A stretch of 64,000 bases of DNA, from the NCBI GenBank assembly GCA_963813305.1, contig CAWEYP010000006.1:123048-187047 (forward strand). Reading direction: 5' to 3'. The DNA comes from an uncultured Chloroflexia bacterium (GTDB taxonomy: Bacteria > Chloroflexota > Limnocylindria > Limnocylindrales > CSP1-4). The stretch's first letter is position 1, and each line of letters starts with the position of its first letter. Shown one piece after another: positions 43,240-62,710 of the stretch. Below the pieces are notes generated by a model. That model did not search any database and was not told where the DNA came from. It saw only the letters and a program-made list of their open reading frames with translations. A program made the position numbers and the translations under genes.

Positions 43240-43362
43240 GCCAGTGGTAGCGCAGGTGCCTTCGGGAGCCGCTGGGGCCCGAGCGGCGTGGGGTCGACGA
43301 TCCTGAACGACCGGCCGAGCGGCGAAAGCCACCGATTGATTGTGCGATTCGCGAGCACGATG
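43240..43362 (+). repeat. Partial copy (E) of the approximately 230-nt structured repeat family (3' two thirds)
   Basis: Shares ...cagtggtagcgca.gtgc.ttcgggagccgctggggcc... and ...ccgattgattgtgcgattcgcgagcacga with copies A-D. Confidence 0.6.
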
Positions 43363-43482
43363 TCGGTCGCCACGACTGAAGCATCGATCAGACGCCCGGC
43401 GCGCGACGATCCCGTCGTACCCAGGCACGAAGGTGGCGGGAATGTCGTGGAACTCAGGGTACCCTCGATTTCCGAGCCTTCA

Positions 43483-44253
43483 ATGTCCGAGTTCACCCCT
43501 GCGCCAGGGTTCGCCTGCGGTAGGATCGGCACAATTCGAGGAGGCCCCCACGTGGGTGCGACCGAACCGGTTGGTACCCATCTCGCACGGCTGCTGCCGC
43601 GTGCCGGCGCCGGCACGCTGCGTCGCCTGGAGCATGGGGCTCGGCACCAGACCTTCTCCCGCCGTGACCTGTTGCACGCGAGGGGTTTCCAATTGCCACC
43701 CTTCGTCGTGCTCGATGGGCACGTCATGAACCGCCGCGTCGTGGAGACGGGACAGGTCTACGCCGCGCTGATCGCGGGGCCCGGATACCTCGGCGGACTT
43801 CGCTCGATCAGCGACCCGGACGCCGACGCGCTCTACGAGCTGGTCGCGCTGAGCGACGGGACGTGGGCGACGTGGAATCCGGGGTTCATGCGGCAGATGG
43901 CGCTCGAGGACGCCGGGCTGGCCGTGGGCCTCCTCGACCTGGCATCGGACTTCGCGGTGGTCCTCAACGTGCGACTCGACGAACGGTCCTTCGCGAGCGC
44001 GCGCCAGCGGATGGCCGCCATCCTCCTCCGCTACGGGAGCGTGATCTTCGACACGCCCCATCCGGTCGCGCAGCGAGCCGACCTGGCAGCCATGATCGGC
44101 ACGAGCCGCGTGATGATGTACCGGACGCTGCGCGGGCTGGAAGCCGACGGCCTCGTGGAACGCCAGCGCGGCGGCGGCATCAACGTTTTGGACAAGGACG
44201 GGCTCGCCCGACTTGTCGACGTGGCGGCCCCTGACGGCGCCCCGCCTCTCTGA
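43483..44253 (+). CDS. Crp/Fnr-family transcriptional regulator (cNMP-binding domain plus C-terminal HTH)
   Basis: HTH (RADLAAMIGTSRVMMYRTLRGLEADGLVERQ). A beta-roll region lies upstream. The start is uncertain (ORF opens at 43288). Confidence 0.7.
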   Translation: MSEFTPAPGFACGRIGTIRGGPHVGATEPVGTHLARLLPRAGAGTLRRLEHGARHQTFSRRDLLHARGFQLPPFVVLDGHVMNRRVVETGQVYAALIAGPGYLGGLRSISDPDADALYELVALSDGTWATWNPGFMRQMALEDAGLAVGLLDLASDFAVVLNVRLDERSFASARQRMAAILLRYGSVIFDTPHPVAQRADLAAMIGTSRVMMYRTLRGLEADGLVERQRGGGINVLDKDGLARLVDVAAPDGAPPL

Positions 44254-44385
44254 CCGCTGCTGCCGCCTGCGACCACGCATGCGGACGGCCCGCCAAGCCC
44301 TCCCTTCTCCGAGCCCCGACCCAGCGTGGGGGTCGGTGTCTTGAGGCACCACCCGGCGGCTCCGAACGGGAATAGGACAAAGGTT

Positions 44386-44993
44386 ATGTCGCTCGGTCGA
44401 ACCACCGAGTACGTTCGGCCGGCGTCCCTCCGACCAGGTGGCAGCTGGTCGCGTGAAGCGCGAGGTAGCTCTACCTCGGTTGAGTCCCGCGAGTCGGTGC
44501 AACGGCGGACGGCCGTGGCAGCGAGAGGAGCGGAACGGCGGACGTCACCGGCCTCATCTCGACGTTCATCTCACGCGCCCGCGGTGGCGCGGCGGGCCTG
44601 CTCGCGGGTCGCCTCCTGGCCGGCCACGATGGTCACCGCGAGAGGCTCCTGAAGGCGATCGACGAGACGGAGCTCTGGCAGAGGGCCGTGCTCGACCTGC
44701 TCTACCGTCACGCGCTCGACAACGAGGCCGACAGCAGGCAGGTCGAGGCCTACCTCGCGACGCGGCCATGGCCGCAGGCCCACGCCGACCTGCTTGGCCC
44801 GGACCGGGACGCAGTGCTGGCCCTGTCTGTCCGGCTGATGAACGCGACCGGGAGGACCGAGGCCCTGGCGTCGTGGACCGAGGCCCAGCAGCTGGTGGGA
44901 CGTCGGATGGCCCTCCAGCGGAAGCGCGTCCAGGCGGGCCACGAACCCGAACAACCGACGAACCCCGACCCGGCCGGCCCGTTCGGGGCATGA
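44386..44993 (+). CDS. Hypothetical protein. An ATG with RBS at 44386 reads into a protein-like downstream frame (44484..44993), implying another frameshift. Low confidence
   Basis: Downstream frame: ...RERLLKAIDETELWQRAVLDLLYRHALDNEADSRQVEAYLATRPWPQAHADLLGPDRDAVLALSVRLMNATG.... Confidence 0.3.
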
Positions 44994-45502
44994 AGAGACC
45001 CCGGTCGCCCGATGTGCGCCCCCATCCCGCGAACGGAGCGATCAGGGGTCGGTCTGGGTGGACTCAGCCTCGGCGATCCCCAGGGTGGTGGTCGCGCTCG
45101 CAGTCGCGGCAGATTCGGTTCGGGCGCCGCGTCGCGCGCGGGCACAGGCAGACCGCGCAGCGGCAATCCTTCAGCTCCGCCACGAAACCACGGTGCTACT
45201 CCGTTTCACGCTGCGCGGGGACACCGCCCATCACACCGACCCCGGGACGCCCGGTGCGCCGCGCTCCCCCCAGTCTCGAGCGGGCGACCGGGCGTGCCGG
45301 GGGTCGTCAGGTGTTCGACGTCCCACGCGATCGAGCGCGGATCGTGTGCGTCCCGGCGTCCTGTGTCGATAAACAATGGCCGAAAACGCATCGGCCTCCC
45401 GGTCGCCCGGTGCGCGCAGCTGCCGGAGCCTTCCTACGGCGTCGGGGGCGAGCCGGGGAAGATGAGGCCGTGGGGCGCAGGTCGGGCCCCCGGACGTGCA
45501 AG

Positions 45503-45600
45503 CATCGTGCGCTGGGGCCGAACGGTGGAGGGTCCCGCACCGAAGGCACGGGGTCTGCCAACGAGACCCGTCCGACTATTGTGCGCTTCGCAGGCACGAG
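45503..45600 (+). repeat. Degenerate short copy (F) of the structured repeat family
   Basis: Keeps the left boundary catcgtgcgctg and the right-end motif ccgactattgtgcgcttcgcaggcacgagg. Confidence 0.45.
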
Positions 45601-46009
45601 GACTACCGTTTGGGGACTGCTCCCGGACGAATGCGCACGTAGCGAATGTGGTAGCGCATCCTGCCGACGGCTGACGGGCGGGTCTTGGCGCCCTCGGACG
45701 GACGCGGGGCTCGACGGCGGCGCAGGATGCCCCGCCCCACCGGTGGCACGCTCTCACATCACCTGACGCCGCTTTGACCCCGCCCGCTCGGCACCCGGGG
45801 TCGCGTCCCCGGCGAGCTCCTGCGACGACGGCGCGCCAACTGCGGGCTGTTTGTCACTCGTCAATCGCGCGTGCCCTGCCGATGATCCAAACGACGGCAC
45901 ACGAACCCGCTCGACCCGCAGACCTGCCGTCGACGGCAGCCGCGGAGCTGCCTCGGAGAGTGCGTTGCCCGGAAGACTGCTGCACCGGGACAAGCAGAGA
46001 CGGCGAGCC

Positions 46010-46261
46010 ATGGTCTCGGCGGTCGTCGTCGCCGAGCCGGTCCGGTGCGTCGAGTGCGGAATCTGCACGTACAACTGCCCGCTGGGCATCGACGTCCGCA
46101 CCCACGCCCGACTGGGGCAGCCCGTTGCCGACACCTACTGCCTGACCTGCGGCGAGTGCGTCGCCCGCTGCCCGCGCGGCACCTTGCGTTTCGAGATGTC
46201 GGCGGTGTTCAACTCCGGGCTCCACCCGCGGGGGTGGATGAGATGGCCCGACGCTACGTGA
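46010..46261 (+). CDS. 2x[4Fe-4S] ferredoxin
   Basis: CVECGICTYNCP and CLTCGECVARCP motifs. Overlaps the next gene by 19 nt. Confidence 0.7.
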   Translation: MVSAVVVAEPVRCVECGICTYNCPLGIDVRTHARLGQPVADTYCLTCGECVARCPRGTLRFEMSAVFNSGLHPRGWMRWPDAT

Positions 46262-47562
46262 TCGTCGGCAACGGACCGGCCGGCCTGACGGCGGCAGAGA
46301 CGATCCGCCGCAACGACCAGTCCGGTGAGATCCGGATCGTCGGTAGCGAGGACCACCGCTTCTACTCCCGTCCCGGCCTGGCCTACCTGCTGACGGGAGC
46401 CATCCCGGAGAAGCGGCTCTTCTCGCGCCCGGACTCGGAGTACGAGCGGGCCCGCATCCACAGATCCGTGGGGACCGTGCAGCGGATCGAGCCTGCGGAT
46501 CACCTGATCACGCTCGCCGACGGCCGGACGATGACCTACGACCGCCTGCTGCTGGCCGTCGGGGCTCGAGCCGTGCGGCCGTCGATCCCCGGCTCCGATC
46601 TCGACGGCGTGGTGACGCTCGACAACCTCGACGACGCACGTCGCATCCTGCGCCTCGCGCGCCGGGCCAAGCGCGGGTGTGTCGTCGGAGGCGGGATCAC
46701 GGCAGTCGAGCTGGCCGAGGGCCTGGCGGCACAGCGGGTCGAGACGCACTACCTGATGCGCGGTGACCGCTACTGGGCGAGCGTCCTCAGCCCGCACGAG
46801 TCGGCGCTCGTCGAGGAGCGCCTCGTCGAGGACGGCATCCGCATCCACCCTGGCATGGAGCTGGCCCGCGTGATCGGGCGCAAGGACCGGGTCTCGGCGG
46901 TCGAGACCCAGACCGGGGCCGTGCTGCCGTGCGATCTCCTCGCGGTGGCGATCGGCACGCTGCCGCGAATCGAGGTGGCGCAGCAGGCGGGCCTCGAGAC
47001 CGGCCGCGGTATCTGGACCGACGACACCTTCCAGACCAGCGACCCCGACATCTTCGCCGCCGGCGATGCCGCCGAGGTGCTCGACGCGGCCACCGGCAAG
47101 CGCGGTCTCGACAGCCTGTGGTCCGTCGCCATCGAGCAGGGCCGGGCCGCCGGGGACAACCTGAGCGGCGTCATCCGCCACTACCGCCGGCCTGCGCCGT
47201 TCAACGTGACGAAGATCGGCGGGGTGACCACGACCCTCATCGGCGCCGTCGGCACCGGCGGCCGGGAGGGAGACCTGGTGACCCTGGCCCGAGGCGACAG
47301 CAACGCGTGGCGGGAGCAGCTGGATTCCTTCGCCGTCGTGTCAGACGCGGGTGCCAACCACCTCCGGCTCTCGCTGGGCGACGATCGGATCCTGGGCGCG
47401 GTCGTGATGGGCGACCAGGCGCTCTCGCGTCCATTGCAGCGCCTGATCCGGGAGCGGGTCGACATCCGCTCCGTGCGCGACCGGCTGATCCAGCGGCCGG
47501 CCGAGATCCACCGGGAGCTCGTGGCGCTCATGGAGAGGACGGCCTCGCTTGGCGCGGTATAG
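46243..47562 (+). CDS. FAD-dependent pyridine nucleotide-disulfide oxidoreductase (NAD(P)H:acceptor reductase)
   Basis: Two Rossmann GxGxxG motifs (VIVGNGPAGLTAAE; CVVGGGITAVELAE) and an FAD C-terminal motif (IFAAGDAAEV). Confidence 0.85.
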   Translation: MARRYVIVGNGPAGLTAAETIRRNDQSGEIRIVGSEDHRFYSRPGLAYLLTGAIPEKRLFSRPDSEYERARIHRSVGTVQRIEPADHLITLADGRTMTYDRLLLAVGARAVRPSIPGSDLDGVVTLDNLDDARRILRLARRAKRGCVVGGGITAVELAEGLAAQRVETHYLMRGDRYWASVLSPHESALVEERLVEDGIRIHPGMELARVIGRKDRVSAVETQTGAVLPCDLLAVAIGTLPRIEVAQQAGLETGRGIWTDDTFQTSDPDIFAAGDAAEVLDAATGKRGLDSLWSVAIEQGRAAGDNLSGVIRHYRRPAPFNVTKIGGVTTTLIGAVGTGGREGDLVTLARGDSNAWREQLDSFAVVSDAGANHLRLSLGDDRILGAVVMGDQALSRPLQRLIRERVDIRSVRDRLIQRPAEIHRELVALMERTASLGAV

Positions 47563-48220
47563 GGAGCTCATGCTGGCGCTGCTGGCCATCGTCGGCATCA
47601 CCGTGGTATACGGCAGCTACGTCCGTGCCGTCGACGTTCCCGCGGCGAGCGGCCTGCTCGGCCACTCCCTGGGGATCGTCGGCTTCACGATGATGCTGAT
47701 GACGGAGACGCTCTACTCGGTCCGCAAGCGGGCCATGCGGCGGCCGCGGGGAACGATGCGCTCCTGGCTGCGGTTCCACATCTTCACCGGGATCGTCGGC
47801 CCCTACCTCGTCGTGCTCCACGCCGCCTGGACCTTCAACGGGCTGGCGGGGGCGCTGACGGCCATGACGGTCGTCGTCGTGGCCAGCGGCTTCGTCGGGC
47901 GATACATCTACACCGCGGTGCCGCGCACGGCGGACGGGGTGGTGATCGAGGCGCAGGAGCTGCAGCTGCTGCTGGACGCCGCGCGGCAGGAGGTGGCGCA
48001 CCCATCGACCGAGAACGGGGCGTCCGGTGCAGCACGGGGCCGGGAGCGGGCGGCGTCGCGCCGGCTGCGCGAGCTGGAACGGCAGATGGCTGCGCTCCGC
48101 TGGGCGCGGCGCACCCTGGCGACCTGGCACACGATCCACATCCCCCTGGGGATGGCCCTCTTCGTGACGGCCTTCGCGCATATCGGGGCTGCCGTCTATT
48201 ACGCAACGCTGCTGCGCTGA
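47549..48220 (+). CDS. 4-TM integral membrane protein, putative di-heme b-type cytochrome membrane anchor
   Basis: Four hydrophobic helices. Conserved His residues lie in TM2 (LRFHIFTG...LHAAW) and TM4 (WHTIHIPLG...FAHIGAAVYY). Operonic with the multiheme cytochrome. Confidence 0.55.
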   Translation: MARYRELMLALLAIVGITVVYGSYVRAVDVPAASGLLGHSLGIVGFTMMLMTETLYSVRKRAMRRPRGTMRSWLRFHIFTGIVGPYLVVLHAAWTFNGLAGALTAMTVVVVASGFVGRYIYTAVPRTADGVVIEAQELQLLLDAARQEVAHPSTENGASGAARGRERAASRRLRELERQMAALRWARRTLATWHTIHIPLGMALFVTAFAHIGAAVYYATLLR

Positions 48221-48229
48221 GGCGACGAG

Positions 48230-49837
48230 ATGCGCCGTCCGCTGGGCTGCATGACCTTCTCGGCGCTCGTTGCCGCCGTCCTGACGTTCCTCGCGATCCT
48301 CGCCGCCGCCGCCCTCACCGGCAACGGGATCTTCAGCCCCGGCTCGCTCAGCGGCGTCGCGCGAGGCGCCCCGATCGAGGGCGTGAGCTCCCACGCCGAG
48401 CTCGAAGCCCGGTGCGACGCCTGTCACGCGACCGCCTTCTCGGGCCACCGGATGGCCGACCGGTGCCTGGACTGCCATACCCAGGTGCAGCAGGAGATCT
48501 CCTCCGGGGACGGGCTGCACGGCCTGTTGGCCCCGGTGGACGACTGCCGCGGCTGCCACACGGACCACCGGGGCGCGACGGCCTCGCTCACGCTGGCGGA
48601 CCCGGCCGTCTTCCCCCACGACCGGACGGGCTACTCCCTGCGCGCGCACCCGCTCCGCGCCGGTGGCGGCAGCTTCGGGTGCCTGGATTGCCACCCCGGC
48701 TCGCCGACGTCGTTCACGCCACCCGCCTGCATCGCCTGCCACGAGGAGCGCGATCAACCCTACATGGCGCAGCACGTCGGGACCTTCGGCACGGCCTGCC
48801 TGAACTGCCACGACGGGATCGACTCCTACGGGGCCGCGTTCGACCATGCGACATACCCCCTGACCGGCGGGCACGGCGAGGCGCTGTGCGGCGCCTGTCA
48901 CCAGGGCGCGACGACCATCGAGGCGCTCCAGGCCACGGAGACCGCGTGCGCCGCCTGCCATGGAGCCGACGACGTCCACGACGGCCGCCTGGGCACCTCG
49001 TGCGGGGGGTGCCACACCCCCGCAACCTGGGCGAACGCGACCATCGACCACGACCTCACGCGCTTCCCCCTTGTCGGACGCCACGTGGGTCCGCTCTGCG
49101 AGTCCTGCCACGTCGACCAACAGTGGACGGGGATCGGCCTCACCTGCCGCAGCTGCCACGCCGTCGATGACCCGCACGCCGGGCAGTTCCCCGGTGACTG
49201 CGCGCGCTGCCACGCGCCCACCGGCTGGAAGGACGTCACCTTCGACCATGCCCAGACGGGGTTCGCTCTCAAGGGCGGGCACGCCAAACCCGCCTGTGCG
49301 GCCTGCCATCCGGACGGCCGGTACGTCGGGACGCCGACCTCGTGCATCGGATGCCACGCCGGTGACGACCGCCACAAGGGGACTTTCGGCAAGGACTGCG
49401 CCGCCTGCCACAAGGCGACGACCTGGGCCGACTGGACGTTCGACCACGCCAAGTCGTCGTTCCCGTTGACCGGTGCCCATCGCGGCGTGTCCTGCCAGGG
49501 CTGCCATGCAGGCGGCAAGTTCCAGGGAACGCCGAGCACGTGCTCGGCCTGCCATGCCAGGCCTGCCTCGCACGGCACCGTCCTTCGCGGCAACTGCGGA
49601 TCCTGCCACTCGACCCGAGCCTGGAAGCCCGCGTCGTTCAACGGGCCGCATCCGTTCCCCATGAACCATGGCGGCGCCGGTGGGTCCTGCGCTCAATGCC
49701 ACCCGTCTTCGCTGACCAGCTACTCCTGCACTCGATGCCACTCGAGAGCCGACATGGCGGAGCATCACAAGGAGGTGTTGGGGTTCTCGATGACCACGTG
49801 CGCGAGGTGCCATCCGAATGCCCAAGGGGGTGGCTGA
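48230..49837 (+). CDS. Membrane-anchored multiheme c-type cytochrome with 21 CxxCH motifs (doubled-CXXCH repeat architecture)
   Basis: 21 CxxCH motifs counted by eye in 535 aa. An approximately 25-aa repeat recurs (FDHxxTxFPLxGxHxxxxCxxCH). An N-terminal TM anchor is predicted (MTFSALVAAVLTFLAILAAAAL). Confidence 0.85.
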   Translation: MRRPLGCMTFSALVAAVLTFLAILAAAALTGNGIFSPGSLSGVARGAPIEGVSSHAELEARCDACHATAFSGHRMADRCLDCHTQVQQEISSGDGLHGLLAPVDDCRGCHTDHRGATASLTLADPAVFPHDRTGYSLRAHPLRAGGGSFGCLDCHPGSPTSFTPPACIACHEERDQPYMAQHVGTFGTACLNCHDGIDSYGAAFDHATYPLTGGHGEALCGACHQGATTIEALQATETACAACHGADDVHDGRLGTSCGGCHTPATWANATIDHDLTRFPLVGRHVGPLCESCHVDQQWTGIGLTCRSCHAVDDPHAGQFPGDCARCHAPTGWKDVTFDHAQTGFALKGGHAKPACAACHPDGRYVGTPTSCIGCHAGDDRHKGTFGKDCAACHKATTWADWTFDHAKSSFPLTGAHRGVSCQGCHAGGKFQGTPSTCSACHARPASHGTVLRGNCGSCHSTRAWKPASFNGPHPFPMNHGGAGGSCAQCHPSSLTSYSCTRCHSRADMAEHHKEVLGFSMTTCARCHPNAQGGG

Positions 49838-50017
49838 CAGCTGAGGCCACGCCACATCGGTACCTTGCCCGCACGCGAGACGTGGCCTGGGGCCGCTCCG
49901 CACGCCCTGTACGTGGTCGAGCTCGCTGCCTGCGCGGGCGCCCGAACGGCCCGTCACGTCGGGTGCACCGGCCACCCCGACGCGGTGCGGGGACCGGGGC
50001 GAGGGCGGCAGCATCGG

Positions 50018-50225
50018 GCGGTTCGAGCGCTGTAGGCCAGGCTCCCGGTCGTCGCCGAGGAAGCACGCGCGCTTCCGAGCACGAAATCGGCCGGGGTGTA
50101 GCGCAGTGGTAGCGCACGTGCTTTGGGGGAGCCGCTGGGCCCCGTGCGGCCCAGGGTCGGCAGTCCTGAGTACGAGGGGCCGAGCGGCGTAGGCACCGAT
50201 TATTGTGCGGTTCGCGAGTACGGAC
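50018..50225 (+). repeat. Copy A of the approximately 230-nt structured repeat (right end truncated), abutting the anti-sigma gene stop
   Basis: catcgggcgg...gagcgctgtaggcc...ggggtgtagcgcagtggtagcgcacgtgctttggg...ccgattattgtgcggttcgcgagtacgga. Confidence 0.7.
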
Positions 50226-51968
50226 CTACGGCGCGACGAGCGTGGTCGTGTAGATCGGGTCGCCGTGCAAATCGAGCGCCACGACGGTCCCCGAGTAGAG
50301 AGGCTGCTTCGGGCCGCACTCGGTGCGCCCGGTGCCGGCGGGCTCGACTGCGAACCCGTAGACGGTGTTCCTGGCCCCGACTTCCGAGGTGGCAAGCCAC
50401 GCCCCGGCCTCGACGAGCGTGACAGGCCAGCCCGCCTTGACCTTGCCGGTTGTCCCGATCGCCGTGACTCTGTTGGCGGTGGCTCGGACGCCCCCCTCCG
50501 TGTTCTGTGCGAGGTGGAGGCTCCCGTCCGGGCCGGCGAACGGCGGCAAGTAGAAGGAGGGGCAGGACGGGCAGGTCGTGCAGGCCCCACCCACGTTGAC
50601 GACGAGGTCGTCCTGGGACCTGTGTGGCCAGCCTGCTCGCAGCTGGCCTGATGGACCGAGGGCGTACGCGACAGTCTCCGCCCCAGGGCCCGCGACGACG
50701 TAGACCGAGCCGTCCGGCGCCACGACGGGCGGGAGTGGCGGAGACGCCACGTCGGACGCGGGCAGCGTCGTGTCGATCGGAAGCTGGACCGGCCAACCCC
50801 TGGCGAGGCGGCCGTCGCGGGTGAAGGCGTAGACCTGAGAGGACGCGCGAGGGGTGATGCGCCCCTCGTCGTCAACTGGCCAGCGGCCGGCCGTGACGTA
50901 GATGTCGCCGTCCGTGCCGAATGACGGAACCGACGCCCAGCCGGCGACGCTGATCGGCCAGCCGGTCGCGAGGCCGTCAAGAGTGAGGGCCGAGATCAGG
51001 GTCTCTTCGGTGTCGCCGCCCACGACATACGCGGTCCCGTCCGGTCCGATCGACGCTTGGAGACTGACGAGCTCAGGGTCCCGCAGGCTCACACCAATCC
51101 GCGTGGAGCCATCCCTGGCCACGCGGACCAGCGTCGCAGAAGCCCTGCCGGCTTCCCTATCGAGCAGGACGACGTAGAGGTCGCCGTTCACGAGCCCCGT
51201 CGGGTCGCTCAGATACCACTCGAGGCCGCCTCTCGGGAGGTCGACCGGCCAGCCCGCCATGAGTCGGCCCGACCCGTCAAGCGCGAAGGCTCGCAGCCGC
51301 CCCGTCTCTCCGATCGCGCAGACGGCGCGCACCGAGCCGTCGGAAGGGTCAGCGTCGAGCGTGCAACCTGTGGCCTTCTTCAGCAGCACCGGCCAGCCCG
51401 CGCGAACACTGCCCTCCGCGTCGAGTGATCCGAGGACGGTGCCGTTCTCTGCCGGGATCGCCACGAACAGCCCGCTGTCGGGGCCCGCCGCCAGGCCGAC
51501 TCTCGCCAGCTCGCCGGCGTTCCCCTTCACCGGGAAGGACGCCGCGGCAACCGCCGTCGCGACGAAGCTCGCAGCCGGCGTCGAGGTCGGGGCGGCGGAC
51601 GGCGTGGCCGCGGTCGGGGCGGCGGACGGCGTGTCGGCAGTGGAGGTTGGCGCGGCCGTGACGAGCGGCGTCGCCGTCGGGGGGAGGGGCGGCACCACGG
51701 CCGGCAGCTTCCGCTCCATCTGCGAGCCGACGATCAGCATCCCGCCGACGAGCGCGGCCAACAGGCCCGCACCGACGAGCAGGAGCACGGCCGGGCGCGA
51801 GACAGTGACAGGGCGCAGGCCGAGGGCCGCCGCCAGCCGGTCCGACAACGCGGCCGGTTCGGTCGCCGGGATGGCCGCAACCGCCCCTCGGAGGGCGTCG
51901 GGCACGGCTGGCGACGCCTGGGCGTCGAGCCAGTCGCGGAGCCGCCGCTCGGTCTCGCGCTCGTTCAT
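50226..51968 (-). CDS. Membrane anti-sigma factor with a large extracytoplasmic beta-propeller domain (repeated GWP motifs)
   Basis: Its ATG overlaps the ECF sigma stop (ATGA). It has an N-terminal cytoplasmic segment, one TM (AVLLLVGAGLLAALVGGMLIV), a Pro/Thr/Ala linker, and at least 8 repeats ending in AGWP/RGWP. Confidence 0.75.
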   Translation of the reverse strand: MNERETERRLRDWLDAQASPAVPDALRGAVAAIPATEPAALSDRLAAALGLRPVTVSRPAVLLLVGAGLLAALVGGMLIVGSQMERKLPAVVPPLPPTATPLVTAAPTSTADTPSAAPTAATPSAAPTSTPAASFVATAVAAASFPVKGNAGELARVGLAAGPDSGLFVAIPAENGTVLGSLDAEGSVRAGWPVLLKKATGCTLDADPSDGSVRAVCAIGETGRLRAFALDGSGRLMAGWPVDLPRGGLEWYLSDPTGLVNGDLYVVLLDREAGRASATLVRVARDGSTRIGVSLRDPELVSLQASIGPDGTAYVVGGDTEETLISALTLDGLATGWPISVAGWASVPSFGTDGDIYVTAGRWPVDDEGRITPRASSQVYAFTRDGRLARGWPVQLPIDTTLPASDVASPPLPPVVAPDGSVYVVAGPGAETVAYALGPSGQLRAGWPHRSQDDLVVNVGGACTTCPSCPSFYLPPFAGPDGSLHLAQNTEGGVRATANRVTAIGTTGKVKAGWPVTLVEAGAWLATSEVGARNTVYGFAVEPAGTGRTECGPKQPLYSGTVVALDLHGDPIYTTTLVAP

Positions 51969-52507
51969 CTCGTCACCTCGGGACGCTCGCCCTCGAGCGC
52001 GACGCCGAGGTCGCGCAGGGCATAGTGAAGGCGCGACTTGACCGTACCGGCCGGCACGCCGACCCGGGCCGCGATCTGGTCGATCGACAGGTCGCGGTAG
52101 TAGCGGAGGATCACGACGATCCGCTGGTCGGGATCGAGCCTCGCGAGGCCACGCCCCACGGCATCGCGGTCGGCGGCGACCGCCGCGATGTCGTCCGCGG
52201 CTGGGCTCATGGACAGCTCGTCGCTGAGGTCGGTGATCGGGTGCCTCCGGGTCCGGCGGAGGCGGTCGCGACAGACATTGACGAGGATCCGCCCGAACCA
52301 CGCCTCGAAGCGGGCTGGGTCGCGGAGCGAGCCCCAGTGCTTCCAGGCGGCGACGAAGGCATCGTGGGTCGCGTCCTCGGCCTCCGCCGGGTCGCCCAGG
52401 ATCAGCGCAGCGAGCCGGTAGCTGTCGGCGAGGTGGCGCTCGGCGAGCTCGGAGAACGCCGCCGCCCGGTCCGCGTTCGCGCTCCCGATCGCCCGCTCCC
52501 TGAGCAT
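51965..52507 (-). CDS. ECF (sigma-70 family group IV) RNA polymerase sigma factor
   Basis: Region 2 (DATHDAFVAAWKHWGSLRDPARFEAWFGRILVNVCRDRLRR) and region 4 (LDPDQRIVVILRYYRDLSIDQIAARVGVPAGTVKSRLHYALRDL). Confidence 0.85.
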   Translation of the reverse strand: MLRERAIGSANADRAAAFSELAERHLADSYRLAALILGDPAEAEDATHDAFVAAWKHWGSLRDPARFEAWFGRILVNVCRDRLRRTRRHPITDLSDELSMSPAADDIAAVAADRDAVGRGLARLDPDQRIVVILRYYRDLSIDQIAARVGVPAGTVKSRLHYALRDLGVALEGERPEVTR

Positions 52508-52767
52508 CTCGTCTCCGGCCTACCGATCGTCTCGGGCCCTGTCGAGGGGTCCTGCCTATCTGACGAACTGGTCGGGCAGAACGTTCAGCCGTGCGGCCAC
52601 CGCTCCTGGCCCGCGTTTCCGCGGGCCAGGAGCGAGTTGCCGCGTTCCGGTGGCCGTGGACTCGGCCGCGCGTCAAAGGCCTCCCGCCGCCGGTCACCAT
52701 AGGCGGCACTCGTTCGTCTGGCGAGAGGCGAACGGCTCCCGGGGCTCGGAGGCTGGGCGAAGGCGCG

Positions 52768-53010
52768 CATCGTGCGGTCCGAGCGCTGTAGGCTAGATCT
52801 TCGGGCGTCGCTCCCGAAGCACGTGCGCTTCCTGAGCACGAACTCGGCCGGGGTGTAGCGCAGTGGTAGCGCACGTGCTTTGGGAGCCGCAAGGGCGTTC
52901 GCGGCCTAGGGTGGCAGACCCTGAGCACGACCGGTCGAGCGGTGAAGGCACCGATTATTGTGCGGTTCGCGAGCACGAATTTGAAGCCGGGACTCCAGCG
53001 CTCGGCTCCG
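52768..53010 (+). repeat. Copy B of the structured repeat (full length with right extension), between the small Cys gene stop and the ECF sigma gene
   Basis: catcgtgcggtccgagcgctgtaggctag ... ggggtgtagcgcagtggtagcgcacgtgctttgggagccgcaagggcgttcgcggcctaggg ... ccgattattgtgcggttcgcgagcacgaa ... ccagcgctcggctcc. Confidence 0.75.
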
Positions 53011-53012
53011 AT

Positions 53013-53432
53013 CAGTCCAGGCACCTATCCTGGTGATCGGGCAACGGGGCGCTGCGATCGGGCAGCGGCGGTGCGAGCCCCTTGGTCGCCTCGATGATCC
53101 CCTTGAGGACATCCATAGGAACCGCCTCGGAGGTGACCGTGGCGGCGAAGCCGCGTCCCTCGGTGAGGATGGCCGGACGATCGAAGAGGACGTGGAGCCG
53201 GTCGATCAGGAGCGCGAGGTCGCGGGGACCGATCCGCAGGGTTCAGCGCTCGGTCGATCGCCGTTTCGACCGCGCACGGTACGACGGCGGCGGGGTGGCG
53301 GCGGCATTCGCAGGTCGCCTTCGTGACCAGATGGACCTCGACCGTCTTTCGCTGCGAGATCGTCGAGACGCTGGTCTCCGGAGGATCATCGAAGTCGAGT
53401 CTTCCGGGTTCCGGCTGCCCGACGCACATCAT
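53013..53432 (-). CDS. Small Cys-containing hypothetical protein (about 140 aa) with a frameshift near 53245. Its C-terminal approximately 50 codons are duplicated next to repeat copy D
   Basis: N-terminal part: MMCVGQPEPGRLDFDDPPETSVSTISQRKTVEVHLVTKATCECRRHPAAVVPCAVETAIDRA. C-terminal part, in an adjacent frame: LRIGPRDLALLIDRLHVLFDRPAILTEGRGFAATVTSEAVPMDVLKGIIEATKGLAPPLPD...DRCLD*. Confidence 0.4.
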
Positions 53433-53485
53433 CAATCGGTATCATTTCTGGGCGCAGGTCGCACGCGCGTCCCAAGCGAGGTTTC

Positions 53486-55738: not shown

Positions 55739-55907
55739 GCGAGGGCGGCCAATCAGCGGCTGCCATGCCGAGCTGACCGAGAAATCGCGACTCACAAGCC
55801 GGTCGATCTCGACCGCGCGCTCCTTGGTCGCCACCCGATTGAAACGGGTCGACGGGGCGCTCGTTCCCAACGTGCGCTGCGAGGACCAGGCGTGGATGAC
55901 GGCCTTG

Positions 55908-55928
55908 CCTCACCCGTTTTAGGTGAGG
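55908..55928 (+). terminator. Candidate intrinsic terminator hairpin (7-bp perfect stem CCTCACC / GGTGAGG, 7-nt loop) about 170 nt downstream of the LAL gene
   Basis: cctcacccgttttaggtgagg. The downstream tract is only weakly T-rich. Confidence 0.3.
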
Positions 55929-56129
55929 CGGATGTTTCGCCTCCTCCCGTACGCTCACGGCCGTGACGGTGCCGACGAATCGCAACCTTCAGGGCGGAGC
56001 AAGCCAACATGATCGGCCGGGCAGTCGTCGGGGCAGTCGACGTCCCCGAATCGGGGACGCTGTCGGGATGCTTCTCGGGAAGTTGTAGCGGCTTCGGGAC
56101 GCGCCTCCCACACCACAAGCCGTGACGTC

Positions 56130-56720: not shown

Positions 56721-56726
56721 GCACGA

Positions 56727-57173: not shown

Positions 57174-57269
57174 GGGTGGGAGCGCCTGTTTCGCGGCTCG
57201 AGGGCAGGCGGCACCTGCCGCCCGCGGGGCAGGCTACGGTCGACCGCCTCGCGTGGCGGCAGTCGGGGC

Positions 57270-57505
57270 AGGGAAGCGGTGTAGGCTAGGCTTCGGGGTG
57301 CGGCTCAGGAAGCACATGCGGTTCGCGAGCACGAAACCGGCCGGGGTGTAGCGCAGTGGCAGCGCACGTGCTTTGGGAGCCGTCGGGGCCTCTGCGGCCT
57401 AGGGCCGGAGGCCCGGAGCACGAGACGCCGAGCGCCGTAGACACCGGTTATTGTGCGGTTCGCGAGCACGAAGCTGCCGGACCGGGTACCAGCTTGGCAG
57501 CGGTG
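57270..57505 (+). repeat. Copy C of the structured repeat (full length). The internal 20-mer tgcggttcgcgagcacgaa occurs twice, identically
   Basis: gcggtgtaggctagg ... gcggttcgcgagcacgaaaccggccggggtgtagcgcagtggcagcgcacgtgctttgggagccg ... ccggttattgtgcggttcgcgagcacgaagctg ... ccagcttggcagcg. Confidence 0.75.
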
Positions 57506-57598
57506 GTCGGGCCTAAGGGGGTAGCCCCGCGAGCAGCGACCTTCCGATCACATGCGGCTCGCCGAGCCTCCAGAGCCTTGCGACCTGGTCCGCAGCGC

Positions 57599-57847
57599 AT
57601 GACGCGTCGGCCGTCCCGCCGCCCCGCCGAGCGCGCCACCGACCGCGAGGTCGGCGTGGTCGCAGCGGTCGTCGTCACCGGATCGGAGAAGGCGGCCGCC
57701 CACCGACTCGGCCTGTCGCGCTCGACCGTGAAGCACCACCTTGCGAACGCCCGCTCCAAGGTGGGGGTTGCGACCACGGCGCAGCTCGTGTGGATCCTGG
57801 CACCGCGGCTGCCCGAGCCGGAGGGCGGGGCGCATTCGGACGGATAA
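57599..57847 (+). CDS. Stand-alone LuxR-type HTH protein (GerE-like, 82 aa)
   Basis: ERATDREVGVVAAVVVTGSEKAAAHRLGLSRSTVKHHLANARSKVGVATTAQLVWIL. A second, frameshifted copy lies at 59935..60184. Confidence 0.6.
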   Translation: MTRRPSRRPAERATDREVGVVAAVVVTGSEKAAAHRLGLSRSTVKHHLANARSKVGVATTAQLVWILAPRLPEPEGGAHSDG

Positions 57848-57939
57848 GGGCGGCACCCGTCCACAAGTGCCGTCCGGCAACCGCCCTGGGCGTAGCCTCG
57901 GCCCGCAGACGTCGAGGTCGCCCAGGGAGGAGTGCCGGG

Positions 57940-58444
57940 TCAGTAGATCCAGGGAATGAGGCGCGGCGTCCGGCGGCGGTACTCGGCGTACGTCGGGAAC
58001 ACCTCGCCGAGCCAGGCCTCCTCGCGGCGGGACTTGAGGTCGAAGAACAGCGCGAGCAGGACTCCGCACAGCGAGCGTCGGCCAGGACGCCATCAACAGG
58101 CCCCAGCCGATCGCGAAGAGGACGCCGCCCCCGTACATCGGATGGCGGACGAGGCCGAACGCGCCTTCCTCGATGAGCCGGCCGTCGTCCACGGGGCGCG
58201 GGAACGCCGTCAGCTGTCGTCGCAGCGCGACGACCCCGCCGGCGATGAGCGCGATCCCCCCGGCCATGAGGGCGAGGCCGGCGAGGGCTCCGATCGCGCG
58301 CACGGGGCCGGCCCAAGACGGACCCGCTATGCCCGTGGCGATGACGGCGACGAAGAGGACCGCCTGAAGAGCGACCCAGCCCTCGCCGCGAGGACCGAGG
58401 TCGGGGATGTGGATGCGCGGCGTGCGGCGCGTGGTGGCGGTCAC
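57940..58444 (-). CDS. Isoprenylcysteine carboxyl methyltransferase (ICMT)/phospholipid methyltransferase-family membrane protein. A frameshift lies near 58068
   Basis: RHPMYGGGVLFAIGWGLL motif. The C-terminus (GVLLALFFDLKSRREEAWLGEVFPTYAEYRRRTPRLIPWIY*) is reached by dropping one C in gtgcgga. The GTG start overlaps the upstream stop (GTGA). Confidence 0.65.
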
Positions 58445-58821
58445 CGCTCGGCCCGGCCCTTCGAGAGTACGCCCGCGATCAGGGCGAGGCCGCAGGCGAC
58501 CAGGAAGAGCGCGAACACCGGGATGTAGACACCGGCGATCGTGCCGAACCCGGCGACGAGGGCGCCGGTGCCGAGGATCACGCCGAACCACTCGAATGCG
58601 AGTCCGAGGGCAACGCGCACGGCGGCAAGACCGAGGAGAAGGACGCCGAGACCGACGAGCCAGGTGCCCTCGGGCAGGCTCGGGAAGAGCATCAGGACCC
58701 CGGTCATGAGGAAGAAGATGCCCCAGCCGAGGACGTCGAGGCGGTGGGCCAGGTTGGTGGTGTCTGCGTTGGTGGTGTCTGCCATGCCAGTCATCTGCGT
58801 CTCTCCGGTGGCCCCAGCCAC
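58441..58821 (-). CDS. Small polytopic membrane protein (126 aa)
   Basis: Four hydrophobic segments (GWGIFFLMTGVLMLF...WLVGLGVLLLGLAAV...FGVILGTGALVAGFG...VFALFLVACGLALIAGVL). Operonic with the ICMT gene. Confidence 0.55.
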   Translation of the reverse strand: MAGATGETQMTGMADTTNADTTNLAHRLDVLGWGIFFLMTGVLMLFPSLPEGTWLVGLGVLLLGLAAVRVALGLAFEWFGVILGTGALVAGFGTIAGVYIPVFALFLVACGLALIAGVLSKGRAER

Positions 58822-58877
58822 CCCTCCCGTCGGCCCGACACCTCCATCGGCACCAGCTCACCGACTGCCTGCACCAT

Positions 58878-58968
58878 AACGAGCGAGCGCTCGATTTGAA
58901 AGTGCCAATCGGCTCTATTCGAACGACGGCATCTTGGTACCATTCATGTGTGAGCGCTCGCTCTTGTT
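58878..58968. promoter_or_regulatory. Two related GC-rich palindromes (AACGAGCGAGCGCTCG at 58878-93 and GAGCGCTCGCTCTTGTT at 58953-68) in the divergent TetR intergenic region. These are candidate TetR operators
   Basis: Each site is internally palindromic around GAGCG.GCGCTC. The two sites are reverse complements of each other. Confidence 0.35.
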
Positions 58969-58986
58969 ACCGATCCGGAGGGACCG

Positions 58987-59598
58987 ATGCCGCGCATCTC
59001 GGCCGAGCGTGAAGAGGCGACTCGCCGCCGGATCCTCAAGGCGGCCCGGCAGGTCTTCGTCGAGAAGGGCTTCCATCGGGCGAGCATCGACGATGTCGTC
59101 GCCGCCTGCGGGCTCTCGGTCGGGGCCATCTACACCTACTTCCCGAACAAGGACGAGCTGATCCGGGCGAGCATCCTCGACGCGAACCGCGAGGAATCCG
59201 ACGCGGTTCTGGCTGACACGCGGGCGGCCGGGTCGGTCGGCGAACGGCTCGACCGAGGGATCCGGGGCTGGTGGCGCTACACGATAGAGGCGGAAGGGGC
59301 GCCCGCGTTCCTGGCCGAGGCTTGGGGCGAAGCCTCGCGACGGCCACTGATCCGGGACCTCATGGCCAGGCGCCACGAGCGGGGGATCACGATGACCTCG
59401 ATCATGTTCCGCGAGTGCGTCGAGCGGGGCGATCTGCCCACGCGCATCGACGTCGATGCGCTCGCCCGCACGATCGGGGCGCTCACGGACGGCATGGTGC
59501 TCGAGTACGTCGTCTCCGGCGGTACGCTGCGGTTCGAGGACGCGCAGAATCGCATCCGCCTGGTGCTCGAGGCTGCCATCAGGGAGGCAGCCGCCTAG
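58987..59598 (+). CDS. TetR/AcrR-family transcriptional regulator
   Basis: N-terminal TetR HTH (RRRILKAARQVFVEKGFHRASIDDVVAACGLSVGAIYTYFPNKDEL). Confidence 0.85.
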   Translation: MPRISAEREEATRRRILKAARQVFVEKGFHRASIDDVVAACGLSVGAIYTYFPNKDELIRASILDANREESDAVLADTRAAGSVGERLDRGIRGWWRYTIEAEGAPAFLAEAWGEASRRPLIRDLMARRHERGITMTSIMFRECVERGDLPTRIDVDALARTIGALTDGMVLEYVVSGGTLRFEDAQNRIRLVLEAAIREAAA

Positions 59599-59934
59599 GA
59601 GCCTGGTGTGAAACGCGCGTTCTGACCGGCTGACGAGGGGGGCCGACGCTTGGCGACGGCTCGGAGCGGTTCCGGCAGATCGCCGGTCGGAGGCCCCCGT
59701 CCGGTCCCTGGCCCTGGCCGTTGAGCCGGACCCTGCTCACCCCCTTGGTCAGGTCCTGCTGGTCACCCAGGTTTCGCCTGAACGGCCGAGCCCGAGCACC
59801 GCGAGCCGGGCGAGGTTGACGGCGGCGGCGAGGAGCGAGAAGTCGGCGCCGACCTTGAGCCTGCCGCGGACACGCGCCCGCCTGCCGCCGTGCCGGCGCC
59901 GCACCAGGTGGGCGAGCTTGCGCGCTGGCGCTGA

Positions 59935-60184
59935 CCAGGGCGCCGGACGACGGGCAGGCGACGTTCACCGAACGTGCCACCGACCGCGAGGTCGGCGTTG
60001 TCGCAGCCGTCCTGGTCGCGGGGTCGCAGAAGGCGGCCGCCCACCGCCTCGGCCTGTCGCACTCGACCGTCAAGCGCACCTGGCGAACGCCAGGTCCAAG
60101 GTGGGAGCGGAGACGACCGCGCAGCTCGTGTGGATCCTCGCCCTGCGGCTGCCCGAGGCAGGCGACACCACCTCGGGCGACTAG
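59935..60184 (+). pseudogene. Second copy of the LuxR-type HTH solo gene, frameshifted near 60075 (…STVKR | HLANARSKVGAETTAQLVWILALRLPEAGDTTSGD*) and lacking a clear start
   Basis: Roughly 85% nucleotide identity (estimated by eye) to 57620..57847 over about 230 nt. Confidence 0.45.
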
Positions 60185-60197
60185 AAGTGGGTTCGAG

Positions 60198-60461
60198 TCA
60201 CGCCTCGCGCGCGACTTCCGGCCCGGGAGGCGGTAGCGGTTCCCCCGCCGGGGTGGGCCTCTGCTCCTCCAGGAGGGCGAGGATGCGATCGGTGTTCGCT
60301 CGGATCGCCGTGACGTTCGTGTAGATCCACTTCGGCGGGGACGTGTCAGGCATCGCGGCGATCCGCTCTCCGATGTCCATCTTGCCGACCCCGGACCCAA
60401 GCGCTCTCGCGAGGAGCGCCCCACCGGCGACTATGGCAGCGATGACCCACGCCTTCTTCAT
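60198..60461 (-). CDS. Small secreted/membrane-anchored hypothetical protein (87 aa)
   Basis: RBS gaggagg precedes the ATG. N-terminus is MKKAWVIAAIVAGGALLARA. The start overlaps the upstream gene stop. Confidence 0.55.
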   Translation of the reverse strand: MKKAWVIAAIVAGGALLARALGSGVGKMDIGERIAAMPDTSPPKWIYTNVTAIRANTDRILALLEEQRPTPAGEPLPPPGPEVAREA

Positions 60462-60991
60462 GTGAGCCTCCTCAGGTCAAGAGGACTTCGGCCGCGGGCC
60501 CACAGCCCGATCCCGACACCGAACGCGATGTGGCCGACGAGCATGATCCGGAGGAGCCGCCCGGCCTCCCCCGACCGGAGGCCCAACCAGCCGTAGCCCA
60601 TCGAGGGGAACATGACCAGGAGCGGCAGCACGGCCGTCGAGATGCCGTACACGGTCCCTGCCAGGAAGCTCCGTCTCCCACGCCAGCGAGGCGGCACGAG
60701 CAGGAATGCCTGCGTGAGCGCGACGCCCGTGACGTAGTGGGTGACCAGGCCGAGCGCGAGCTCACCGCGCTGCGCCGGCTCGCGGCTGATGTCGACGCGG
60801 CGCCACCGGCCGCGCAGCAGGCCGGCTGCCCAGCGGCCGATCATGTCCGGGCCGAGACGGTCGGAGCTGAACGCACTCCCACCGAGGACGCCGGCGGCCA
60901 CCATGGCGACGTCCATGCTGATGGTCGCCAGCACGCCCGCCGGAACCCCGGCCGGAACGCGGATCGAGCGGATCGGCCGGACGTCCATCAC
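60458..60991 (-). CDS. DUF2938-like integral membrane protein
   Basis: Hydrophobic 177-aa ORF, translationally coupled to both flanking genes. Confidence 0.55.
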   Translation of the reverse strand: MMDVRPIRSIRVPAGVPAGVLATISMDVAMVAAGVLGGSAFSSDRLGPDMIGRWAAGLLRGRWRRVDISREPAQRGELALGLVTHYVTGVALTQAFLLVPPRWRGRRSFLAGTVYGISTAVLPLLVMFPSMGYGWLGLRSGEAGRLLRIMLVGHIAFGVGIGLWARGRSPLDLRRLT

Positions 60992-62058
60992 TCAACGTTT
61001 CCGGCGGCGAGCATCAGCTCAACCTGCTCGGCGACCCTGCACCCGATCGTCCTGCACCTCGTGATCTGCTCACCGTCGATGTACCTCGACACGCCCCCGG
61101 TGTCGGAGAAGTCGCATCCGGTGATCTTCCGGCACTGGGTGCTGCCGAACTCGCCCGCGAACCACTTCGCCAGCCGGTTCCCGCGGTTCATGCTGGGGTT
61201 GAACTTGTTGAGGTGGTCACCGAAGGCGTCTCCGCCGACCGTCATGATGGCGAGCAGGCGGATGACCCGCAGGCGGCTGTTCTCGATCTCCCCGTCCTTC
61301 AGGCCGATCGCCATCACGCCCGCCGTGAGCGCGCTGCACGTCCTGCCCATGAACAGCGTCCCGCCCATGAACGCCGAGGTGGCATCGAACAGCTCGCGGT
61401 GCTCGGTGGGTGAGTAGCCCAGGTGGCCGAGCACGGCCTGAGCGCAGTGGAACTCGTTCTCCACGAAGTGCGAGTACAGCCTCGAGTAGCCTGCCCTGGT
61501 GCCCTCCGGGATGGCGTCCGACCGGTCGTCGTCGAGCGCGCCTCGCCAGAGCTCCGCCGAGCGCAGGACCGGACCGATGCACTGCCGCGGGAAGCCGTCC
61601 TTCGTTCGGATCTCCCGGCACTGGAGCGTCTGGTGGCAGGCGAGGAAGTCGCGGCACAGCGCATGCCCCCGGTCGAAGATCACCGGGAGACCACGGTCAA
61701 CCTCGCGCAGGCCGTGCTGTGTGCCCATCACCGCGAGGGGCGAGGTGACGGCCCCGCACTCGTGTCCCGTGTTGCCGATGCCCCCCGGCATGCCGGCGCT
61801 CAGCCTGACCAGCCATTCCTTGTCCGTCGACGAGACATCGAGGATCGTCTGCATGGCCGTCGGGGCGCAGTGGCCCATCCTCAGGAGGTTGGAGAAGCCT
61901 CGCCGCCGGTAGCTCCAGTTCGGACCCAGCTCAGGCTTCTGGGGTTGAGTCTGCGTCTCCATCAGATGATCCTTTCGAATCTCGCCCGACTGAGCGGCCT
62001 CGTTCTCCGCACCTTGGCCGGTCGAAACCGCTTGCGGCACGTACGAAACGCGGGCCAC
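60988..62058 (-). CDS. C_GCAxxG_C_C family protein (putative redox-active protein). GC content looks lower than the surroundings. The true start may be ATG 61962
   Basis: Family motif context (LLRMGHCAPTAM...GNTGHECGAVTSPLAVMG...CHQTLQCREI). An aaagga RBS sits before METQTQ. Confidence 0.65.
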   Translation of the reverse strand: MARVSYVPQAVSTGQGAENEAAQSGEIRKDHLMETQTQPQKPELGPNWSYRRRGFSNLLRMGHCAPTAMQTILDVSSTDKEWLVRLSAGMPGGIGNTGHECGAVTSPLAVMGTQHGLREVDRGLPVIFDRGHALCRDFLACHQTLQCREIRTKDGFPRQCIGPVLRSAELWRGALDDDRSDAIPEGTRAGYSRLYSHFVENEFHCAQAVLGHLGYSPTEHRELFDATSAFMGGTLFMGRTCSALTAGVMAIGLKDGEIENSRLRVIRLLAIMTVGGDAFGDHLNKFNPSMNRGNRLAKWFAGEFGSTQCRKITGCDFSDTGGVSRYIDGEQITRCRTIGCRVAEQVELMLAAGNVE

Positions 62059-62459
62059 GCCTATTCGTACCTGATCGCGTCACCGGGCTTCATGTTGGTG
62101 GCGCGCCGGAGAGGGAAGAAGATCACGATCAGCGTGCCGACCATCGCGAAGACTCTTTGAGATCACGAAGCTGGATGAGCGACATGAAGAAGCTCCCTCC
62201 GGTCCAGTCCGCTGTCATGCCAGCACTCGGGTGGGCGGGTCGGTCTCGCCAGTCGCTCGGCGCGGTCCCGGCGGCCGGGGTTGGACCGCGCGTCAGAGCT
62301 TCCCGCCGGCGGTCACGGTAGGCGCCTGCCGGGTCTCTGGCGAGGGCCGAAGGGCCCGGGGCCTACAAGCCACCCGCGCCGGCCGAGCCGTCCTCCGGCC
62401 CGCCGGCAGCGCCGGCATCGCCGCAACCCCGGCGGATGTCCAGTCCTCGGGCCACCAAA

Positions 62460-62710
62460 CATCGTGCGCTGAGAGCGCTGTAGGCTAATCTTCTGGGCGT
62501 CGCTCCCGAAGCACATGCGTTTCGTGAGCACGAAATCGGTCGGGGTGTAGCGCAGTGGTAGCGCACGTGCTTTGGGAGCCGCTGGGGCCTATGCGGCCTA
62601 GGGTCGGCGGTCCTGAGCACGAGACGCCGAGCGGCGTAGGCACCGATTATTGTGCGGTTCGCGAGCACGAATCCGACGCCTGGGCTCCAGCGCTTGGCTC
62701 CGCGCAGTCC
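62460..62710 (+). repeat. Copy D of the structured repeat (full length with right extension)
   Basis: catcgtgcgctgagagcgctgtaggctaatc ... ggggtgtagcgcagtggtagcgcacgtgctttgggagccgctggggcctatgcggcctaggg ... ccgattattgtgcggttcgcgagcacgaa ... ccagcgcttggctcc. Confidence 0.75.

Follow-up and report, generated by a model that had tools for sequence, protein, structure and literature searches.

Half-tRNA repeats in a Chloroflexota contig as probable integration scars at a single tRNA-Pro(UGG) gene

A 64,000-nucleotide (nt) stretch of DNA from an uncultured Chloroflexia bacterium of the order Limnocylindrales (assembly GCA_963813305.1, contig CAWEYP010000006.1, positions 123,048 to 187,047), called here the window, carries six copies of a repeat that begins like a transfer RNA (tRNA) gene and ends as something else. 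We propose, with a probability of about 0.72, that these repeats are attachment-site junctions (attL-type or internal attP-like) of serially integrated and mostly decayed elements at a single tRNA-Pro(UGG) gene. A full copy is a composite of three parts, P-O-X: P is the promoter/leader region of the tRNA-Pro(UGG) gene, O is the tRNA itself up to its anticodon loop, and X is a conserved stretch of about 95 nt that is unrelated to the gene. This composition, the arrays that the copies form, the point at which O gives way to X and the integrase gene that neighbours the intact tRNA in related contigs are the observations on which the proposal is built.

An earlier note, made from the letters of the window, had described such a family in one orientation; our repeat search and multiple alignment recovered it at those places with slightly adjusted boundaries, as four full copies (A to D) and two decayed or partial ones (E and F), all on the + strand. 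The copies and, for copy D, its three arms are as follows (labels beginning with L denote related loci).

43242-43362, + strand: copy E, old decayed junction; O remnant at 43242-43267 (23/37, first 12 nt gone, without P), X at 43269-43362
45503-45600, + strand: copy F, deleted junction; left end of P (CATCGTGCGCTG) running straight into the inner part of an X variant like that of L001
50009-50225, + strand: copy A; P at 50009-50088 (more diverged), O at 50092-50132, X at 50133-50225
52763-52981, + strand: copy B; P at 52763-52845, O at 52849-52887 (37/37), X at 52888-52981
57260-57474, + strand: copy C; P at 57275-57338, O at 57342-57380 (36/37), X at 57381-57474
62456-62673, + strand: copy D, with P, O and X arms
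62456-62537, + strand: P arm of copy D; TGnTAGGCT promoter-like box, leader of about 70 nt, first GAGCACGA repeat at 62526; nhmmer P profile E 7e-23
62541-62579, + strand: O of copy D; 39 nt, from nt 1 of tRNA-Pro(UGG) through the anticodon loop plus GC; 37/37; breakpoint at its 3' end
62580-62673, + strand: X arm of copy D; GAGCACGA at 62615 and 62663, CCGATTATTGTGCGG box; nhmmer X profile E 3e-21

The composite site measures about 230-250 bp overall. The 3' box CCGNNTATTGTGCGNTTCGCNNGNACG occurs 5 times in the window, with 0 occurrences expected (none in 100 shuffles), and the motifs singled out by the earlier note, namely CATCG.GCG...GAGCGCTGTAGGCTAG, GGGGTGTAGCGCAGTGGTAGCGCAC, GCCGC-N10-GCGGC and CCGATTATTGTGCGG, are all present. 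The GAGCAC hairpin that it had counted twice per copy is, on the other hand, a set of three direct repeats per full copy, spaced by 89 and 48 nt, of which the pair first noticed makes up two; among non-redundant full copies, GAGCRY is found at this fixed spacing in P (46/49), in the middle of X (45/49) and at the end of X (37/49). By eye, a comparison of the 5' module with the 3' part of X also yields two GAGCGNNGTAGGC repeats. The copies are intergenic, as had been described, but B and D adjoin remnants of genes.

The tRNA-like stretch of the full copies is identical at 36-37 of 37 positions to nt 1-37 of the genuine tRNA-Pro(UGG) of their relatives. The suspected tRNA-Pro origin of the 5' module is thereby borne out, but not the statement that no anticodon arm follows: the likeness continues via the 5' strand of the anticodon stem into the UGG loop. 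Along the window array, O retains 23/37 identity to the tRNA in E, is essentially gone in F, matches at 36/37 with a GG insertion in the loop in A, and at 36-37/37 in B, C and D; at the L030 site orthologous to decayed copy E, a complete P-O-X is present. ARAGORN, run on the whole window, called no tRNA; in related loci, it found an intact tRNA-Pro(UGG) in 27 out of 135, and the very O sequence of copy D is part of the genuine tRNAs of L006, L042 and L085. Wherever the two were compared, O has the sequence with which the local tRNA begins, down to the GC after the anticodon loop, and shares its lineage-specific D-arm variants GCGC/GCGC, GCGU/ACGC and GCCU/AGGC. The 5' module, including the “left boundary” GAGCGCTGTAGGCTAG of the earlier note, also stands ahead of intact tRNAs, which identifies P as the upstream region of the tRNA-Pro gene. 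Copies come in three forms, with the 5' module of about 110 nt, without it but with a TATCAT/TATGAT-like box 8-12 nt ahead of the tRNA-like start, or reduced to the 3' part. In P itself, TGnTAGGCT may be read from its position as an extended -10 box. The tRNA-Pro leader of about 70 nt also carries GAAGCACATGCG, complementary to CGCACGTGCTT of the tRNA body (3' strand of the D-stem and 5' strand of the anticodon stem); the two segments lie at 62505-62516 and 62563-62574 in the window and are likewise present upstream of the intact tRNAs of L006, L042 and L085, and their pairing may be a precursor structure of the genuine tRNA.

Relatives were collected with a scan for the 3' box in one genome per species, which gave 15 loci, all in metagenome-assembled genomes of Chloroflexota (Limnocylindrales and “Chloroflexia” bins), and with a metagenome scan using two boxes, which gave at least 120 loci. 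The same P-O-X junction is found in more than 130 environmental contigs with unrelated cargo, and the two anchors of X span 90 nt in 145 of 157 instances. We then mapped loci of at least 7 kb using P and X profile searches and ARAGORN. The repeats stand there in co-oriented P-O-X arrays, with units of about 0.5 kb to more than 7 kb; the right end of the array is P plus intact tRNA wherever a tRNA is present on the stretch examined. The intact tRNA is downstream of the repeat and co-oriented with it, and no X was found beyond an intact tRNA in these mapped loci.

The point of junction is seen directly in one pair of occupied and empty sites. L009 and L014 share a cassette of about 2 kb (86% identity) followed by P and O, up to TTTGGGA; from there, L009 goes on as tRNA (GCACGAG...), whereas L014 continues as an X variant and then as different DNA. 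The comparison of L014 (occupied) with L009 (empty) locates the breakpoint where the anticodon loop ends on its 3' side. In the common form of the junction, identity to the tRNA stops after TTTGGGAGC. The divergent X variant of L014 (L014:3950-4060), which comes straight after TTTGGGA, reads TTCTCGTGGCCG...GTCGATTATCCTGCGG, which suggests several families of X, perhaps matched to subfamilies of the integrase. L013, 99.4% identical to the window at 63458-64000, nevertheless lacks about 12.6 kb of the array; one end of the deletion is at ...GAC|GTGCTTTGGGAGCC, at the core, with L013:3200-3330 joining the interior of the anti-sigma-like gene to GTGCTTTGGGAGCC. This deletion looks like an aberrant site-specific event. 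L006 was considered as a clean empty site for copy C and dropped, as the cassette contents differ.

A tyrosine integrase of about 316 amino acids (aa), with a Phage_integrase domain and a SAM-like N-terminal domain (PF00589, PF13495 and PF02899 in Pfam), is located directly beside P and the intact tRNA and is divergent from them. This adjacency holds in all five independent contexts examined: L136, L141, L142, L143 and L144-L151, the last being eight places of one cluster. Four X copies lie beyond the integrase in L142, and the L144 type displays a run of small co-directional open reading frames (ORFs), as in an intact prophage or an integrative and conjugative element. The integrase family has 2,439 matches at E <= 1e-30, of about 316 aa, in Limnocylindrales/Chloroflexota. 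Family-specific seeds were needed to find integrase remnants: generic ones (XerD, lambda Int, gamma-delta resolvase) detected one decayed tyrosine recombinase in 770 kb, adjoining P in L048, and N-terminal remnants of the integrase adjoin P in L009, L014, L031, L048 and L102. At the other side of the junction, an ORF beside X in many copies belongs to a family of phage terminase small subunits (terS; PHROG 1206, E 5.7e-9). Remnants of this terS-like gene match in 20 loci including the window and adjoin X where their position was checked, that is, in L139 and in copies B and D:

53039-53239, - strand: terS-like remnant after copy B; tblastn 55% identity over 67 aa, E 5e-18
62749-62865, - strand: terS-like remnant by the X of copy D; tblastn E 4.6e-7

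Following terS-like homologs led to L136, where a module consists of a terS-like gene, a 57-aa ORF and the integrase.

These observations can be joined in a simple scheme. The tyrosine integrase would recombine at the anticodon stem-loop, with a core CGTGC-TTTGGGA-GCACG and a 7-bp overlap. The incoming element would carry P and a copy of O at one end, beside the integrase gene, and the X arm at its other end; upon integration, the P-O of the element would join the chromosomal 3' half and rebuild an intact tRNA, and the P-O present before would be pushed away and end up joined to X at the distal end of the insert. Round after round, this would build [P-O-X]-cargo-[P-O-X]-cargo-...-integrase-P-tRNA, in which units would be older the greater their distance from the tRNA. 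We infer this crossover chemistry and this order of insertion. Distal units seem to be older and further decayed, and in loci showing both kinds of unit, they have cargo left but have lost both the integrase and the terS-like gene. The GAGCACGA and GAGCGNNGTAGGC repeats, together with the size of about 250 bp, would fit the arm-type protein-binding sites of a lambda-like attP. In the canonical arrangement, the element restores the 3' part of the tRNA, which retains its original promoter; here, the 5' half and the promoter/leader are duplicated instead, in a mirror image of it. Because these are the parts that are duplicated, the promoter that drives the restored tRNA must be the copy brought by the element, and P would then be an active one.

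Several observations weigh against this scheme. Neither an integrase nor an intact tRNA-Pro lies within the 64-kb window, and the predicted right end of its array is past base 64000. A simple consensus scan did not detect a sigma-70 promoter in P. In L136, the integrase, P and the tRNA are present, but the far side of the module carries no O-X; the element of L136 may be fixed in place, or its attL may have been deleted (the module directly adjoins a sugar-acid catabolic operon, at L136:10560-10700). Many cassettes of 0.5-5 kb are without integrase, some of them directly beside the intact tRNA, which calls for either fast decay or movement in trans. No excised circle or free attP was seen, and a scan of viral contigs returned no match to the O-X pattern, to X or to a free P-O-X. 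Finally, X is more conserved in sequence and length than the arms of att sites usually are.

A rival is an integron-like system, in which a resident integrase, fixed beside tRNA-Pro(UGG) and inherited vertically, takes up, excises and reorders cassettes devoid of integrase, each with one P-O-X site, whose genes are expressed from the displaced promoters; the locus would then be a tRNA-anchored gene-capture system, its cassettes moved in trans and X kept as a conserved leader. The integrase family is indeed large, of a uniform size of about 316 aa and often with identities of 70-89%, and every context examined has it next to tRNA-Pro; most cassettes have no recombinase, and some measure 0.5-0.9 kb and hold one ORF; the X of one lineage ends in ...GCGAUAUG, the AUG of which opens the cassette ORF. 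The insertion of a cassette devoid of integrase at the tRNA would, however, part the integrase from the intact tRNA, yet the two are neighbours in every context examined, the array lying beyond the integrase. The integrase and terS-like remnants at cassette ends also imply that the cassettes were once autonomous, and a large part of the cargo points in the direction opposite to that of the tRNA promoter. We regard a resident, integron-like integrase as an unlikely explanation, albeit the best placed of those that compete with serial integration. If it were true, the array would serve for expression and would at the same time record, in order of time, what had been acquired, notably modules of extracytoplasmic function (ECF) sigma factors and their anti-sigma factors.

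The next possibility is that the repeats are genes for a non-coding RNA (ncRNA), each P-O-X having its own promoter and making a chimeric RNA of half a tRNA and X, which would work in trans or as a leader, with ECF sigma systems as one conceivable target. The earlier note had favoured a structured RNA because of substitutions that preserve pairing. Such an RNA would be consistent with the promoter-like box upstream, with the TATCAT-type boxes 8-12 nt before the tRNA-like start of leaderless copies, with the strong conservation of X across lineages, with the many G-U pairs on the + strand in a candidate hairpin and with the frequency of ECF sigma genes among the neighbours; CGUGCUU/GAGCACG is pairable in 96% of cases, with wobble-preserving changes. 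Clear compensatory changes are nevertheless confined to the D-arm (GC to CG, 83/22; CG to UA, 67/38), and they are not evidence for a new structured RNA because the D-arm variants are identical to those of the local functional tRNAs, from which they were inherited. Within X, the helices of three candidate hairpins are paired at 75.0%, versus 72.3% in shuffles, with many broken cells, and RNAalifold on 107 sequences gives -7.5 kcal/mol and almost no consensus structure, so that support for a selected fold in X is weak. The element has no match in Rfam 15, neither at the gathering threshold nor when E values of up to 5 are allowed. A constant site upstream of tRNA-Pro and a tie to an integrase would be unexpected for an RNA acting in trans, and old copies decay. 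We consider ncRNA genes to be very improbable. Units are probably transcribed from displaced tRNA promoters, so that chimeric RNAs may be made. The earlier suggestion of a cis-acting module for ECF-sigma or LuxR-type genes likewise fails, as the neighbouring genes vary widely and are often convergent. One lesson here concerns annotation: tRNA-like repeats with apparent compensatory changes can be integration scars, their covariation being borrowed from a genuine tRNA.

A few structural candidates were set aside. The long-range helices CGUGCUU/GAGCACG and GCACG/UGUGC can pair, but their changes affect one side only, and the search pattern itself fixed two of the boxes. Mutual information, used as a signal of structure, mostly reflects subfamilies. 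X taken as a diverged 3' half of a tRNA, with a 40-nt insertion flanked by GAGC, scores no better than shuffles (z = 1.0, -1.0 and 0.6). A pairing of the acceptor-stem strand CGGGGUG with CACCG in X displays no consistent compensatory changes when the alignment is inspected by eye. A function on the minus strand, as the leader of divergent genes or as riboswitches, was not retained: the G-U pairs, the orientation of the tRNA and the promoter-like boxes favour the + strand.

As for a tRNA-derived element akin to a miniature inverted-repeat transposable element (MITE) or a short interspersed nuclear element (SINE), or a plain segmental duplication by unequal crossing-over, several similar and partly tRNA-derived copies in 20 kb and an internal 2.3-kb duplication (57627-57817 vs 59968-60157) would speak for it, but it has next to no likelihood and is already contradicted by the data, since there are no terminal inverted repeats or target-site duplications, the copies are not dispersed but, wherever a tRNA was present on the stretch examined, lie upstream of it in one orientation and at one location relative to it, and more than 130 contigs whose cargo is unrelated share the exact nucleotide of the junction, the window cargo between copies being unrelated as well. 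What remains of the earlier MITE/SINE proposal is the involvement of mobile DNA; the inverted repeat that it had placed at the right end of B and D sits inside the terS-like gene remnant and is no terminal repeat. A purely local segmental duplication is incompatible with the recurrence of one junction in so many contigs with different cargo.

Turning to cargo, the units of the window contain a Crp-type regulator, an oxidoreductase together with a multihaem cytochrome, an ECF sigma/anti-sigma pair, a LuxR/AAA regulator accompanied by two sigma-like genes, and a group made up of GerE and TetR regulators, DUF2938 and a C_GCAxxG_C_C protein downstream of a riboswitch. In the loci taken together, genes for ECF sigma and anti-sigma factors are the most frequent neighbours; major facilitator superfamily transporters and toxin-antitoxin pairs (MazF-like, PhdYeFM/PIN) are also among the cargo. 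The site is, thus, a hotspot of plasticity at which Chloroflexota of the Limnocylindrales type gather regulators, ECF sigma/anti-sigma pairs and toxin-antitoxin modules. Other features of the window are:

50226-52507, - strand: cargo between copies A and B; ECF sigma at 51965-52507 (Pfam Sigma70_r2/r4) and, from its translation, a membrane anti-sigma-like protein at 50226-51968
62229-62312 and 43080-43160, - strand: c-di-GMP-II-GAG aptamers, 63.6 and 48.3 bits; each just left of a repeat (D and E, respectively)

The two aptamers are riboswitches of RF03169 on the strand opposite to the repeats and the only Rfam matches in the window. That at 62229-62312 is upstream of the C_GCAxxG_C_C protein and a DUF2938 gene, that at 43080-43160 is upstream of an ORF with a weak SnoaL-like match, and the two are paralogous (86% over 44 nt). 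The cassette at 46045-49837 (+) encodes a pyridine-nucleotide-disulphide oxidoreductase, a 223-aa ORF with a weak MerR-type match and a 535-aa multihaem cytochrome c (c7/c3), which is unusual cargo for a Chloroflexota island. Within one cassette, 57627-57817 and 59968-60157 are 85-88% identical, encode small GerE-type helix-turn-helix regulators and lie 2.34 kb apart; L006 is without the intervening 2.6 kb or so (GerE, PEMT-like and TetR genes), which points to an internal duplication or an insertion in the window. Elsewhere, the cassette next to the tRNA in L015 encodes what by eye, in translation, is a MazF/PemK-like toxin with a small antitoxin, and L138:17994-18640 carries a PhdYeFM/PIN pair. 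In loci of the beta lineage (L104 and L107; also, for example, L038, L061 and L112), X ends in a conserved ...ATTGTGCGATATG; the cassettes of L104 and L107 have one small ORF each, which starts at this ATG, and a displaced tRNA promoter and X could serve there as promoter and leader of the cassette ORF. The 42 kb to the left of the array consist of ordinary chromosomal genes, among them, at 21885-30572 (-), that of a 2,895-aa protein with the supersandwich and catalytic domains of glycoside hydrolase family 94 and a glucoamylase-like domain, resembling, by its domains, a cyclic beta-1,2-glucan synthase.

Known systems offer several points of comparison for serial integration at tRNA-Pro(UGG). 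Integron arrays share with it co-oriented cassettes, a conserved recombination site, an integrase at the end where insertion takes place and many cassettes of 1-2 genes without recombinase; they differ from it in that the array lies here on the integrase's far side from the intact tRNA, that the hairpin potential of X is weak and that the remnants are those of the cassettes' own former integrase; nor is there evidence for IntI-type features of the integrase, at which no examination was aimed, or for attC-type sites that fold as single strands. In the same phylum, Dehalococcoides harbours tandem islands at ssrA, which rely on a serine (CcrB-like) recombinase and a 20-bp repeat taken from the 3' end of ssrA and are located downstream of it; many of these islands are without integration genes and have been proposed to be cis-mobilisable (PMC3146451). 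Serial accretion at one small-RNA gene, a row of direct repeats and strain-specific cargo are common to both, whereas a tyrosine integrase, a composite repeat of about 230 bp that includes the 5' half and an array located upstream are particular to the present system.

A further comparison is with the tyrosine-integrase islands and prophages in tRNA genes, for which the classification of Williams (2002), as outlined in PMC8371274, recognizes an anticodon-loop sublocation. As in these, the tyrosine integrase adjoins the site, the core is the 7-nt anticodon loop with its symmetric stem, a segment of the tRNA is duplicated, an intact tRNA is restored, direct repeats bound the insert, and occupied and empty sites exist. 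The usual form of integration at the anticodon loop leaves the tRNA its native promoter and duplicates its 3' part. The 5'-half form is said to be seldom seen in bacteria (PMC8371274); here, the 5' half and the promoter/leader are duplicated, and the scars lie upstream of the tRNA. A parallel for this feature comes from the pTN3-like integrases of Thermococcales, whose attB is, according to PMC8371274, which cites Cossu et al. (2017), the 5' half of a tRNA gene, with an element-borne promoter beside the integrase gene expressing the restored tRNA. The geometry is the same, with the integrase divergent from P, which is presumably active as a promoter, followed by the tRNA; the likeness is one of geometry. 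The host, by contrast, is a bacterium (Chloroflexota), and long tandem arrays of decayed units are not described for pTN3 in the account cited. The integrase and its site of about 250 bp could serve as a tool for site-specific integration in these organisms. Few bacterial cases are on record in which the 5' half of a tRNA gene and its promoter are replaced, and the present system, with its more than 130 environmental contigs, would be one that is widespread; a bacterial, widespread system that replaces the 5' half and builds long arrays is a new form of a known type of integration.

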